From a virus: a stretch of DNA of 64,000 nt. Under the pieces are notes generated by a model. That model was not told where the DNA came from, searched no databases, and saw nothing but the letters and a program-made list of their open reading frames with translations. Every line of letters begins with the position of its first letter. Within the stretch, counting starts at the first letter, position 1. The translations under genes and the position numbers were made by a program. The stretch is from the IMG/VR virus record IMGVR_UViG_3300008262_000018, positions 57,097 through 121,096 of that record. One strand, written 5' to 3'. Positions 57,725 to 63,612 of this stretch are shown here, in pieces.

Positions 57725-57900
57725 AATTAATATTTTTTAGTTTGTTTCCATACATCAATAACTCCCCATACTACAAGAATTAATGATAATACTATAAATC
57801 CTAATATTATATATCCCATAATAAATTTTTTAATAAAATTAAATAAAAAATCCCAGTGTAGAAACACCAGGATGTTGCTAACCTATGAAAAACACCTTAG

Positions 57901-58301
57901 TGGAGGTGAGGGGAATCGAACCCCTGTCCAAACAAACAAACAATGCATACAACGTATCACATGCTTAGTCAAGAGATAGCTTGACAACTATGTACTAAAA
58001 GTAAAGATATATCCTTACTTTTTGCACCGTAATAGGAACTAGCACGGTAATGCTCCACCACTTGATTTTATGACTATCAAGAAAACTATTACTATTTTCT
58101 GTTGCCAAGCATAGATGCTCCGTAGGATTAAGCAGCGATTGCTACTTCACCAAAGATAGAAGCTAAGATAGCTTCACCTTCTGCTACACGGTCAACATTA
58201 GATGTGCCGTTTAAAGATTGAATCATTGATTATAGAGGAATAGACCCTTACCTCTGCATGTGTACACACCTTTGATTTGCTGTCAAATCCTTGGCACCCC
58301 C
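57901..58301 (-). ncRNA. ssrA: tmRNA
   Basis: 5' GGGGGTGCCAAGGATTTGAC; 3' GGGGTTCGATTCCCCTCACCTCCA (T-arm, acceptor with G3:U pair); internal tag ORF 58208-58128 GTSNVDRVAEGEAILASIFGEVAIAA*. Confidence 0.93.
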
Positions 58302-58517: not shown

Positions 58518-58793
58518 TTATTTTAATATAGTTGTTAATTTCGTCATTCCAGATCCTCTTGACTCTCTCATTATTATACCCTTTTTTTCCAATTTACGCA
58601 AAATCCTAATAACAGTAGATTGTGTGTTTCCGCATTCACTTGCTATTCTATCTACACTCACAAAAAGCGTGTTATCAGACCCTGCATATGTACAAAGATA
58701 AGCATATATTGCTTTCTCTGGTAGAGATATTTCAGGATCTTGAATAACTGTTTTAGAAACTTGTCCAAAACCTGCTTTTAATCTAGAATTCAT
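58518..58793 (-). CDS. Winged HTH protein (HTH_36-like)
   Basis: EKAIYAYL..SVDRIASEC..TVIRILRKLEKKGII. Confidence 0.8.
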   Translation of the reverse strand: MNSRLKAGFGQVSKTVIQDPEISLPEKAIYAYLCTYAGSDNTLFVSVDRIASECGNTQSTVIRILRKLEKKGIIMRESRGSGMTKLTTILK

Positions 58794-58805
58794 TAGATGA
58801 AATTA

Positions 58806-59423
58806 TTACAAAGATAGATCAACTGTATTTGAATGACTAGTTGTAGATGGTTTCATTTCTGTAATAGAAACAAGATCATAACAACCAAACTCACCATTGT
58901 TTGTTGGTCTAAATGAACCAATGCCTATATATTCTCCTGCATATTGCACAATATTTTTTATCATTTCTTCTGTAATTGTGTCAATTTTTACTCTTAAAGT
59001 AAATTCAGCTTCCCAACCTACATTCCATTTAGGACGAACTGTAATAATACGAGCTTTTACATTTCTATTTACAGCTGATCTTTTATCAAAACAATCATAA
59101 TCAGGCATTAAAATTTGTTCTGGTGTTACTAAAAACATACCAGCAACAATATTCTTCATAGATTTAGTGGCGCTTCCCACTTTACCTTTTACCAATTTAC
59201 CTGCTTCAATAAGCGCTGCTTTAATTTGAGAAGAAGGAATAAAACAATGACCATCATTGTTTCTATAACAATGAAACTCAGCTTTAACTTGATCAGGAGT
59301 ATTTAATCCTAATCTTTCAATAATCATGTGTCTTTCTTTTTCCCATTTGTCTAATGTTTGATCGTCCATACGATGTTGCATGTAAGGACTAGATCCTTTA
59401 ATTTTTACTTTGTAAGATTTCAT
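58806..59423 (-). CDS. Solo Cas7/RAMP-like protein
   Basis: First strand VKIKGSSPYMQH, FIPSSQIKAAL (cf. IPGSSLKGA), WEAEFTL, Gly-rich loop GIGSFRP..GEFG; true ATG at 59423. Confidence 0.75.
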   Translation of the reverse strand: MKSYKVKIKGSSPYMQHRMDDQTLDKWEKERHMIIERLGLNTPDQVKAEFHCYRNNDGHCFIPSSQIKAALIEAGKLVKGKVGSATKSMKNIVAGMFLVTPEQILMPDYDCFDKRSAVNRNVKARIITVRPKWNVGWEAEFTLRVKIDTITEEMIKNIVQYAGEYIGIGSFRPTNNGEFGCYDLVSITEMKPSTTSHSNTVDLSL

Positions 59424-59514
59424 TTTTTTTGATTTTAAATGATTATTAATAAAAAACATTACTAAACAATACTTAACAAAACAATACGCCACCCCACGGC
59501 ACTATACCGCACTC

Positions 59515-59570
59515 AAAATCTCTGCATTTTTTCAATTGGACTTGTAACCAACTTTGGTAGCATTACCTTT
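59515..59570 (-). ncRNA. Twister ribozyme-like linker A
   Basis: UAA-UGCU-ACC..AGUUGG-UUACAAGU-CCAAUU..AAAA-UGCA-GAG; T1 pseudoknot imperfect. Confidence 0.55.
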
Positions 59571-59632
59571 ACTTTACGCTACGTAACACTACGCCACTCG
59601 ACCTCACCTTACGTCACACGACATAACCATAC

Positions 59633-59690
59633 ATAAAACCTCTGCATTTTACAAACAGACTTGGACTGTCTTAGGTTGCATTACACTATA
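59633..59690 (-). ncRNA. Twister ribozyme-like linker B
   Basis: UAA-UGCA-ACC..AGACAG-UCCAAGU-CUGUUU..AAAA-UGCA-GAGG. Confidence 0.6.
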
Positions 59691-59733
59691 CTTCACCTAA
59701 CACCACAACACCAAACCCCACCACACTAAGCAT

Positions 59734-59757
59734 AAAAAGGGGAGATTTCTCTCCCCA
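59734..59757 (-). terminator. Terminator hairpin between the ParB-like gene and the array
   Basis: Minus strand: GGGGAGA-GAAA-TCTCCCC-TTTTT. Confidence 0.7.
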
Positions 59758-59761
59758 ATTT

Positions 59762-60697
59762 TTATTTAATCTTATTGAAAAACTCTAAAAGTTTACCTTC
59801 TTCTTGTGTAGCAAGGACAAACATATCAGATTTTTTCTTTAACTGTGTAACAAAACGCTCATGATTGTAATCACAACCAACAGAATTCAAAAACTTAACA
59901 TACTCTGAACAAGCATATTTGTTTTCAAATCTATTCATTCTTGGCAACACTTTAAATACATCTGTCATATAGTTTAAGATTTTGAGAGCTTTGCTTTCGT
60001 TATTGATTACAAACTCACCTTTCTTAATTTTCTTAGTAATAGAACTACCACTAGTTGTAACAGATTGATTTGAAAGAATTTGTGCTAAAGTACCAATCTC
60101 AAAATCATATCTTTCAAAATATTGATTAAGTTTTACATAATCTTCTTTTAAAGAAGACCATGCTGTAACATAATCTTGCATAGACCATGACTTTGAGCTA
60201 GCATTTAAAAGAGCAATAGCTTCTACAAGTTCTTGTTTATTCTTAATATCAATAACAACATATGGTATTTCTTCACCTAAACGCATTAAAGCATTAAACT
60301 TATGTTGCCCATCAAGAATGTAATACTGCTTTTTACCATTGATAAAATCAATTTGTGTTACAATAATTGGTTGTAAACAGCCTAATTTATCAATAGATGT
60401 AGCCACTTTTGTTACATGTCCTGGAGCTATAGGACGATTAATACCTGCTAAAAGGGAAAATGCAACTTTTGATAGTTCGTTTAACCATTTAATATTTTTT
60501 AATGGTTGTTTACGAGCATCTCTTACTCTTTTTTTAACACTGCTGGTTTTTTCATTTATGACATCAGCTACATGTTGAGCAAATTTTTTAATTTGTCTTT
60601 TATGAGTGACAGTTAATTCAATATCAGGAGTGAGTGTGTGAATAGAGGCTTTTCTTTTTGTTGTTACTTTTGCTTTTGCAATTGATTTTCTTTTCAT
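59762..60697 (-). CDS. ParB/Srx-like domain protein
   Basis: INRPI, QPIIV, ILDGQHKFNAL, LNASSKSW. Confidence 0.8.
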   Translation of the reverse strand: MKRKSIAKAKVTTKRKASIHTLTPDIELTVTHKRQIKKFAQHVADVINEKTSSVKKRVRDARKQPLKNIKWLNELSKVAFSLLAGINRPIAPGHVTKVATSIDKLGCLQPIIVTQIDFINGKKQYYILDGQHKFNALMRLGEEIPYVVIDIKNKQELVEAIALLNASSKSWSMQDYVTAWSSLKEDYVKLNQYFERYDFEIGTLAQILSNQSVTTSGSSITKKIKKGEFVINNESKALKILNYMTDVFKVLPRMNRFENKYACSEYVKFLNSVGCDYNHERFVTQLKKKSDMFVLATQEEGKLLEFFNKIK

Positions 60698-62659: not shown

Positions 62660-63151
62660 TTAGTCTTGTTTTACTAATGCATTAAATGCTTCAACAGAAA
62701 TGGTTTTTTCCCAATCTATTCCACCATGTTTTTCAAACACTTCTTCCATAACAGAAACAGGTATTCTACCCACTGTGTCTGTAATATTGAAAGTATCTTC
62801 TTCAAATGGAATATATTCCACATTTAATTCTCCATCAAAGTGTGGTTTGGTATGACCATACATTTCTGAATACTTATGCATAAGTGGCTCATTTTCTGAT
62901 GGAAAACCAAATTCCACATCTTGCATGGTATGTCCAAACTCGCGATAACCATTCTCTGATGAGCAATAGTTACCACTGTGTATCTGAAGAGATACATTAA
63001 AACCATCTTTAGCCCATACTCTTGGACAATGAAAGAGTTGGTTGTCATAAGACATTCCTTTTTTAAATGGATTGTCTCTGTTTTTGTCATAAGTGACCTG
63101 TGATTGAAACAAGGTTGACAAAATTAGTCTGAAGTAAAGTGTCAGATTCAT
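62660..63151 (-). CDS. Conserved phage hypothetical protein
   Basis: DGFNVSLQ..YCS..VEFGFPS..KHGGI. Confidence 0.7.
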   Translation of the reverse strand: MNLTLYFRLILSTLFQSQVTYDKNRDNPFKKGMSYDNQLFHCPRVWAKDGFNVSLQIHSGNYCSSENGYREFGHTMQDVEFGFPSENEPLMHKYSEMYGHTKPHFDGELNVEYIPFEEDTFNITDTVGRIPVSVMEEVFEKHGGIDWEKTISVEAFNALVKQD

Positions 63152-63181
63152 GATATTTAAATTTTAATTGGTGACAAAATT

Positions 63182-63342
63182 GTTCCCTCTGCACTCAGAT
63201 GTAATACTCCCGTATACCCGCAGTTTACACCAAACCGTAGATTTTAACCTATGTTGGACTGTACGGTGTTATTTTCACATAGTCGGCTAACTATGATATT
63301 ACATCTGCTATCCCTTGGAAAGATAGTGTGCAAGAGAGAATT
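63182..63342 (-). ncRNA. Structured RNA, degenerate twister-like fold with large inserted stem
   Basis: UGCAC/GUGCA-GAGGGAA, CUAUC-UUUCCAAGG-GAUAG hairpin, CAGAUGUAAUA/UAUUACAUCUG stem. Confidence 0.5.
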
Positions 63343-63350
63343 ATATGAAA

Positions 63351-63372
63351 AGAGCCTTGTTACAGGCTCTTA
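63351..63372 (-). terminator. Intrinsic terminator
   Basis: aagagcct-tgttac-aggctctt. Confidence 0.6.
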
Positions 63373-63612
63373 ATCAAATATACTCTTTGGTTCATCGTAA
63401 GTGTCCTGAAATATATCAAACTCACAATCAGGACAAATCATCCTATTTTCCTGAGTACCATCAGAATACACTCTTCTCACACTTACTCTTGGATCACCAA
63501 AGCTATCATTCACTTCATTACCACAATCATCACATACACATTTGTGCTTTTGAGGTGCATCAGGAAGTGTAATTTTTCCTACAACCTTTGGCTGATAATA
63601 AGGATGTGCCAT
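63370..63612 (-). CDS. Small Zn-finger protein
   Basis: CDDC..CPDC; start MAHPYY. Confidence 0.6.
   Translation of the reverse strand: MAHPYYQPKVVGKITLPDAPQKHKCVCDDCGNEVNDSFGDPRVSVRRVYSDGTQENRMICPDCEFDIFQDTYDEPKSIFD

Follow-up and report, generated by a model that had tools for sequence, protein, structure and literature searches.

How is a transcript that carries several guide RNAs divided into single units when its locus has no Cas6-like gene? This question is raised by IMG/VR virus record IMGVR_UViG_3300008262_000018, a complete 121,096-bp phage record bounded by direct terminal repeats, of which we analyzed the right-hand 64 kb (64,000 nucleotides; hereafter the window). Near the window's end, where the minus strand carries all genes, three tracts with GU in every five bases stand upstream of a 205-aa gene and are separated by two linkers of ~50 nt, A and B. 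The locus resembles VIPR, a group of phage RNA-guided DNA silencers older than CRISPR that was first described in 2026 preprints; the cutting of VIPR multi-guide transcripts into units is known in outline only. An initial reading of the sequence letters (the original prediction) had proposed that the linkers are twister-like ribozymes that could replace Cas6 in releasing the unit RNAs. From sequence comparison, we assign a probability of about 70% to the reading that the linkers are type-P1 twisters without P3 separating VIPR guide tracts, and that the array probably cuts itself into unit guides.

Guide tracts and twister-type linkers

The tracts are pentameric. With 9, 13 and 12 uninterrupted units of the form NGU/NN, they agree with the tract pattern of the VIPR guide RNAs (vrRNAs), for which lengths of 9–16 pentamers have been published. 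A scan of the whole 121-kb genome found no other tract with GU in every five bases, and none arose in 20 shuffles. According to one of the preprints, the RAMP protein Vipr binds vrRNAs of 9–16 pentamers in which a conserved GGY alternates with a variable NN, and the NN positions read double-stranded DNA non-contiguously (bioRxiv 10.64898/2026.04.26.720920). The NGU/NN units found here fit this scheme, because non-canonical units such as WGT/NN are described in another preprint (bioRxiv 10.64898/2026.10.21.760802).

The gene downstream belongs to the Vipr family. A profile of 77 family members matched PDB 36pp_D, 'SUSP1 Vipr protein', over its full length (E 2.7e-26), and the single sequence (P0001) matched SUSP1 Vipr with E 5.5e-5. 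Judged by sequence profile and structure model, the 205-aa gene is a Vipr homologue, and hence the locus is a VIPR system. The proposal of a guide array was thus upheld, by the Vipr homologue downstream and by tract lengths within the published range, and the intergenic region 59456–59726 (minus strand), with its tracts upstream of vipr, is probably the guide-RNA array of this system. The features are collected in Table 1.

Table 1. Features of the putative VIPR locus, in window coordinates and in minus-strand order.
Feature	Position	Strand	Description
Terminator-like hairpin with U-run	59739..59756	-	7-bp stem with 5 G-C pairs, then TTTTT; follows ParB-like gene, directly 5' of tract 1
vrRNA tract 1	59685..59726	-	9 pentamers, GU in phase (NGU/NN), score 9, no misses
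Twister-type linker B	59634..59687	-	between tracts 1 and 2
vrRNA tract 2	59571..59632	-	13 pentamers, GU in phase, score 13, no misses
Twister-type linker A	59514..59569	-	between tracts 2 and 3
vrRNA tract 3	59456..59512	-	12 pentamers, GU in phase, score 12; followed by AU-rich leader and vipr start codon
vipr (P0001, 205 aa), Cas7-like RAMP	58806..59423	-	profile, single-sequence and structure-model matches
Winged helix-turn-helix gene (P0003, 91 aa)	58518..58793	-	Pfam HTH_36, E 4e-13; 12 nt downstream of vipr

Both linkers follow the type-P1 twister layout on the minus strand, with P3 lacking, and every element named in the original prediction was found at its position. In copy A, U-1/A1 are 59565/59564 (UAA 59565–59563), P2 is UGCU/UGCA (3 bp and a U.U) followed by ACC, P4 is AGUUGG/CCAAUU with the loop UUACAAGU and an A-rich joiner next to it, and G1 A2 G3 occupy 59522–59520, with 59522 as the general-base G. 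In copy B, the corresponding elements are U-1/A1 at 59683/59682 (UAA 59683–59681), P2 UGCA/UGCA followed by ACC, P4 AGACAG/CUGUUU with the 7-nt loop UCCAAGU, and G1 A2 G3 at 59642–59640, with 59642 as the general-base G. The P4 arms differ between the two copies yet remain complementary, and T2 is AC:GU in both. The cores are AU-rich and span 41–46 nt from U-1 to the G-A-G after P2. As regards position, the predicted scissile U^A steps lie where they had been placed. The further claim that they fall exactly at the 3' ends of the tracts held only nearly: in tracts 1 and 2, the predicted cut follows the final phased GU by 0–5 nt.

To place the linkers among relatives, we used 94 Vipr-homologue loci, 14 from IMG/VR and 80 from metagenome contigs. 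The closest relative, L051, encodes a Vipr protein 87% identical to that of the window and carries five linkers at regular spacing directly upstream of the gene, dividing six period-5 tracts. Linkers therefore number one fewer than tracts in both phages (two for three in the window phage, five for six in L051), which is what one would expect of separators and not of handles. The seven copies were aligned with MAFFT. No copy deviated at U-1, A1 or A2, at the first U of P2, at CC, at the closing G or first U of L4, at CAAG, in the A-rich joiner or at A-G-A-G. Of these columns, U-1, A1, A2, CC, the CAAG of L4, the A-rich joiner and the G-A-G after P2 coincide with the conserved positions of twister. 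The catalytic residues are conserved.

The helices changed around this invariant frame. Over the 12 pairs of P2, T2 and P4, 98.8% of cells were paired, compared with 86.1% in shuffled alignments (0/500) and 12–40% with slid partners, and two-sided changes occurred in 6 of the 12 pairs. P2 was paired in 96.4% of cells with two of four pairs compensatory (variants UGCA/UGCA, UACA/UGUA, UGUG/UACA and UGUA/UACA). T2 was paired in 100% of cells. Its variable pair is A-U in five copies and the canonical G-C in two, so that AC:GU is a compensated form of GC:GC, as had been supposed from the two window copies. The covariation of P4, first noticed between A and B, extended to all copies (100% of cells paired, 3/6 pairs compensatory), and pair 21–38 is G.U in six of the seven, which ties the fold to the minus strand in agreement with the earlier argument. 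The twister fold is under selection.

With the type-P1 twister, the linkers have in common the U-A cleavage dinucleotide and A2, a P2 of 4 bp followed by G-A-G, a 2-bp T2, an A-rich L2 strand and a P4 whose L4 contains CAAG; a T1 that would link L4 to L1 is present in partial form. They differ in having no P3, T2 as AC:GU in five of seven copies, an L4 that is one nucleotide short (7 nt) in five of seven, a T1 cut to 1–2 Watson-Crick pairs, a very weak P1 and Rfam scores of 23–37 bits against a gathering score of 67.2. DNA contigs of sequencing runs X9, X10, X12 and X15 aligned to the window contained no variant within the twisters. One low-depth X15 contig tracks the window to 59472, inside tract 3, and then diverges; beyond that point AC again recurs at five-base intervals on the plus strand, and the contig may represent a strain with another guide there.

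The core of the linkers also occurs in a large sub-family of stand-alone phage twisters. A search pattern taken from the window linkers (UAAUGCNACC, gap, CAAGU, gap, AAAUGCAGAG), in which P2 and T2 were fixed and P1, P4 and T1 were free, gave 36 exact matches in IMG/VR contigs, with 30 distinct sequences. Among these 30, T1 (the part of L4 that precedes CAAG, matched with the bases that follow G-A) formed standard pairs in 100% of cells and covaried in two of three columns (C-G 15, U-A 11, G-C 4; A-U 18, C-G 8, G-C 3, U-A 1). Pairing reached 99.2% of cells in P4 and 84% in P1. Over all pairs it was 95.0%, compared with 74.2% after shuffling (reached by 0 of 500) and 20–43% with slid partners. 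Rfam twister-P1 matched 11 of 13 tested pattern sites with 38.7–55.5 bits (E 6e-5 to 2e-9) and did not list the remaining two, in L042 and L048. Because this sub-family shares the core, covaries in T1 and is matched by Rfam, the window core belongs to a genuine twister lineage.

A looser descriptor matched at least 116 stretches, and 149 matches were examined in the collected loci. P2 had 4 bp in 131 of them, the variable T2 position was paired in 145, and T1 had 3/3 pairs in 135, two in 11 and one in three. The stand-alone twisters and the window linkers are alike in the core UAAUGCAACC, then CAAGU, then AAAUGCAGAG, in T2 as AC:GU and in the absence of P3. The stand-alone twisters differ in being single, in lying in leaders, in their full T1 (135/149) and in a well-paired P1 (84%); none of the 149 has a period-5 tract beside it. 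Those of L015–L050 and L131 onward have T2 as AC:GU and no P3, and all that were tested scored below the gathering score. Many stand-alone twisters have a terminator-like hairpin as their immediate upstream neighbour and are closely followed by a ribosome-binding site with its start codon. The one in L042 (482–525) lies ~10 nt from a RAGATH-7 RNA (259–472, 169 bits), both on the minus strand within L042:259–532; the RAGATH motifs take their name from an association with twister and hammerhead ribozymes.

Model searches and the T1 pseudoknot

Model searches with the single sequences matched both linkers weakly. In a permissive Rfam scan of 59000–60200, twister-P1 (RF03160) was the only matching ribozyme family and matched once per linker, end to end, with 26.6 bits (E 0.0037) for linker A and 23.2 bits (E 0.034) for linker B. 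The covariance check that had been suggested therefore matched both linkers, at scores under the gathering score. Hammerhead families gave no match at E<=10 in the same region, and no hammerhead core was seen between the tracts. A shared-core descriptor found two matches in the window versus 0.00 expected from 100 dinucleotide-preserving shuffles. In L051, the Rfam model, run over 49 kb, matched two of the five linkers, one with 36.6 bits (E 2e-4) and the other with 30.8 bits (E 0.0096). Real twisters without P3 evidently stay under the Rfam threshold, because clear stand-alone phage twisters score 38.7–55.5 bits, and we attribute the failure of whole-window and whole-phage searches to a threshold and prefilter too strict for twisters of this form.

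A covariance model of the sub-family (R1) gave 50.6 bits for linker A, 44.9 bits for linker B and 27.9–55.5 bits for the five L051 linkers. Over the 94 loci its matches were in L051 alone, and the whole phage holds just the two twisters A and B. A third twister-like fold, proposed at 63182–63342 (minus strand), was not upheld: 62900–63600 contained no Rfam match at E<=1, and R1 did not match there. In the minimum-free-energy fold, copy B reproduces P1, P2 and P4. Since T2, P2 and P4 covary, the catalytic positions are invariant and a sub-family with the same core has a covarying T1, the twister interpretation of the linkers is supported by the comparative evidence as essentially right.

A number of observations weigh against twisters that cut the array. 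Both Rfam scores are far under the gathering score, and the E-values of the permissive scan become ~0.2 and ~1.8 when scaled arithmetically to 64 kb. A gathering-level Rfam scan of the whole window returned a transfer-messenger RNA (tmRNA) and no twister, and an RF03160 search of the whole phage had 0 matches at E<=10. The high R1 scores are partly circular, because the sequences behind R1 were gathered with a pattern from the window copies, and the seven-copy alignment represents two related phages only. P1 is made of G.U and A-U pairs only, the minimum-free-energy fold of copy A retains P4 alone, and folding energies of the two window copies were no better than those of shuffles (z -0.52 and -0.30); across the seven copies z ranged from -0.30 to -2.12, a measure that is uninformative for pseudoknotted, AU-rich RNA. 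No sigma-70-like promoter was found in 59350–59950, and no RNA run is among the 23 listed sequencing runs, 20 of which are DNA runs with all or part of the stretch. The other 93 Vipr-homologue loci contain no twister at E<=1. Of the 88 homologue loci that have >=150 nt of upstream sequence, at least 35 carry period-5 GU tracts immediately in front of the gene; because tracts occur in loci without a twister, VIPR does not need ribozymes generally.

The T1 pseudoknot adds to these points. On the alignment, we counted the T1 pairs of the seven copies by hand. Copy A (loop UUACAAGU, then GAGAU) has the C-G pair alone, or one of three T1 Watson-Crick pairs, and copy B (loop UCCAAGU, one nucleotide short, then GAGGU) has two C-G pairs out of three; the recount agrees with the caveat that accompanied the original prediction. 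Four L051 copies have the same 7-nt loop followed by GAGGU or GAGGA, with two C-G pairs, and two L051 copies attain 3/3 only if the first U of the loop pairs with A. The last L051 copy (UUACAAGU, GAGGA) has 2/3 pairs. The A.A positions of T1 are present in all seven. The linker nearest the gene, orthologous in the two phages, thus carries a T1 mismatch in each, and no compensation accompanies the change from one phage to the other (GAGGA in L051, GAGAU in the window).

For twisters in general, a review has L4 and L1 joined in T1 by three Watson-Crick pairs and one trans A.A pair, and describes T2 as the most critical long-range tertiary contact, P3 as expendable and P1 as dispensable (PMC5408937). 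In the CHiTA survey of natural twisters, the fraction cleaved fell from an average of 0.76 to 0.65, 0.55 and 0.28 with one, two and three T1 imperfections, which is a further point against efficient cutting here, although many natural twisters with T1 imperfections remained active (PMC11662667). The same survey reports that imperfect P1, P2, P4 and first L4 position were tolerated, that changes to A1, A2 or the general-base G were detrimental, and that A1 is the general acid and the first G after P2 the general base (PMC11662667). A1, A2 and the general-base G are all intact in the window copies. Because of these intact residues and the CHiTA tolerances, we expect copy B and most L051 copies to cleave, judging from their sequences, whereas copy A may be slower or inactive. 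The weak T1 remains the main doubt on the twister interpretation, above all for copy A.

Proposed self-cutting of the array and its alternatives

We infer transcription of the minus strand, cleavage and the fate of the products as follows. The array and vipr would be transcribed as one RNA, in which each twister would fold via P2, P4 and the pseudoknots T2 and T1. Each would then cut at its own 5' edge between U-1 and A1 (59683/59682 and 59565/59564). The tract upstream would end in a 2',3'-cyclic phosphate, and the ribozyme body would begin with a 5'-OH. The predicted products are tract 1 alone, twister B with tract 2, and twister A with tract 3 and the vipr mRNA. Vipr protomers would coat each tract, one per pentamer, and the variable NN dinucleotides would specify the DNA target, in line with published accounts of other VIPR types. 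Mature units made in this way would differ from type II vrRNAs, which have a 3' tail, because a type-P1 twister cuts at its 5' edge.

An unlikely alternative, which takes its force from the weak T1, is that the linkers, or copy A alone, are twister-derived folds that no longer cleave and serve as structured spacers or caps, the cuts being made by host RNases; such linkers might halt the spread of a Vipr filament between tracts or serve as a handle at the 5' or 3' end, similar to the pseudoknotted tail of type II vrRNAs. Measured against the stand-alone phage twisters, all seven copies have a weak T1, the last copy is mismatched without compensation in both phages, P1 is poor and the folding energies are unremarkable; a structured non-catalytic cap has a precedent in the pseudoknotted 3' tail of type II (bioRxiv 10.64898/2026.04.26.720920). 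However, U-1, A1, A2 and the general-base G are invariant in 7/7 copies while the surrounding helices changed often, and these positions would be superfluous in a mere spacer. The absence of a linker before the first tract or after the last argues against an obligatory handle of each unit. Moreover, the CHiTA results include many T1-imperfect natural twisters that were active (PMC11662667).

The consistently relaxed T1 may instead point to conditional cleavage. In this scheme, which is speculative and also improbable, the short T1 and weak P1 would keep the twisters slow or inactive until Vipr protomers occupy the tracts on either side or the flanks are kept single-stranded. The release of guides would thereby be tied to the assembly of the filament, and the poorly paired last copy might stay largely uncut, with tract 3 remaining in the vipr leader, through which Vipr could control its own synthesis. 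If true, the scheme would provide a natural example of a twister gated by a protein and assign the twister class a concrete role in biology.

We consider it quite improbable that the twisters are active but act in cis on the vipr mRNA, on its 5' end or stability, much as stand-alone phage twisters in 5' leaders may do, with their placement between tracts being incidental. Stand-alone twisters of the same core commonly sit between a terminator-like hairpin on one side and a ribosome-binding site with start codon on the other, and cleavage of copy A would leave tract 3 joined to the vipr mRNA, both of which suit such a role. On the other hand, L051 has five copies regularly spaced between six tracts where one cut would be enough for an mRNA end, and 0/149 stand-alone twisters lie beside a period-5 tract, so that the arrangement here is specific. 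That the twister likeness is due to chance, the linkers being ordinary repeat hairpins bound by protein as CRISPR repeats are by Cas6, is very improbable: Rfam scores below gathering and whole-window and whole-genome searches empty of twister would suit it, but a plain repeat hairpin accounts for P4 and not for the covariation of P2 or of T2 (A-U in five, G-C in two), the core is identical to that of a phage sub-family with perfect T1 covariation, the descriptor expectation is 0.00 and the locus has no Cas6-like gene.

Self-cutting at the linkers, if it occurs, has consequences beyond this locus. The locus suggests that a second, unrelated ribozyme class has been recruited, independently, to take the place that hammerheads have in other VIPR types. 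Such recruitment would be independent evidence for self-cleavage as a general, Cas6-free way of maturing guide arrays, and would give twisters, a class with few settled roles in nature, a defined pathway whose product can be tested. Compact cores with a naturally relaxed T1 could also inform the design of minimal ribozymes for multiplexed guide expression.

Known systems and homologue loci

The idea that ribozymes replace Cas6 is already in print, because hammerheads fill the separator role: one preprint describes hammerhead-interspersed vrRNA arrays in VIPR types I and V, confirmed by small-RNA sequencing (bioRxiv 10.64898/2026.04.26.720920). The window array and the hammerhead arrays are alike in the Vipr RAMP gene, the pentamer tracts, a small self-cleaving ribozyme between tracts and the lack of a Cas6-like nuclease. 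They differ in the ribozyme, hammerhead there and twister here, and in its cut, because a twister cuts its own 5' edge, so that its body would stay on the downstream unit, in contrast to the hammerhead arrays. Type II VIPR (SUSP1 and a Pseudomonas fulva prophage; PDB 36pp) shares a homologous Vipr, tracts of 9–16 pentamers and the variable NN. SUSP1 Vipr is, however, distant (E 5.5e-5), and the type II unit is GGY/NN instead of NGU/NN. Type II vrRNAs have a pseudoknotted tail that is conserved and lies at the 3' end (bioRxiv 10.64898/2026.04.26.720920), and no ribozymes.

A multi-guide precursor cut at a conserved element between guides is also the principle of Cas6-processed CRISPR arrays and of engineered ribozyme-guide RNA-ribozyme cassettes. 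Here, in contrast, the RNA is predicted to cut itself in a natural system, and non-contiguous pentamer codes take the place of spacers.

VIPR with hammerhead arrays is published; a twister in the separator role was not found in print. The word 'twister' is missing from the main texts of bioRxiv 10.64898/2026.04.26.720920, 10.64898/2026.10.15.759431, 10.64898/2026.04.26.720927 and 10.64898/2026.10.21.760802, whose supplements may list ribozyme types, and a full-text literature search found no paper pairing vrRNA, or the full name of VIPR, with twister. A strict twister-to-tract junction pattern had 0 matches in IMG/VR, a scan from which the window's own or near genomes may be excluded. The arrangement of twisters between tracts looks rare and, in the sequences compared, so far confined to the window phage and L051. 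A loose tandem-twister pattern matched at least 119 viral-contig and at least 120 genome-contig stretches; these were rejected as chance matches, and the fetched ones had no full twister or period-5 tract.

The AlphaFold (AF2) model of P0001 had a pLDDT of 90.8, and its top Foldseek matches were type VII Cas7 and type III Csm3 (E from 5e-7). P0001 falls in phrog_4652 (E 5.9e-20), a family of unknown function, and has no Pfam family. Its conserved positions include the Gly-rich G163, G167, G169 and G180 together with R172 and P173, in keeping with Vipr as a small Cas7-like RAMP that has a G-loop and thumb. The family is large, one search yielding 644 proteins at E<=0.001 and a second one 1558 cluster representatives.

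VIPR is described as mostly viral, with a typical locus of vipr plus one accessory gene (bioRxiv 10.64898/2026.04.26.720920). The winged helix-turn-helix gene P0003 has a 55%-identical copy at the same position in L051, and the remaining 93 homologue loci have none there; it is a candidate vipr-accessory (vap) gene on the grounds of position and fold only. The upstream ParB-like gene is not conserved in L051. Between tract 3 and the vipr start codon there is no ribozyme.

Other homologue loci have different upstream regions. Long uninterrupted period-5 GU arrays were seen in L074 (~480 nt), L006 and L075 (~350 nt each) and L101 (~320 nt), and may correspond to the 'staggered' arrays of the VIPR preprint. 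Rfam found no ribozyme match in L074, L006 or L101, and no hammerhead in 12 loci with long tracts; a crude regular expression for the hammerhead core over the 94 loci gave scattered matches and no arrays. A GU-phased tract was missing in 53 of the 88 loci with >=150 nt upstream. L010 has pentamers ending in AAAGC/AAAGU, and L007 and L008 have a conserved hairpin-rich leader, and such non-GU loci may use other repeat units or RNA forms. P0149, a protein of 4289 aa, matches the Vipr-like protein of 205 aa in 15 separate stretches (E 2.7e-20) and may thus consist of many Vipr units fused into one giant chain, with a loose resemblance to Cas7-11. In the window itself, a complete tmRNA gene (57898–58301, minus strand; Rfam RF00023, 90.8 bits, E 5e-34) lies ~0.5 kb downstream of the VIPR locus.

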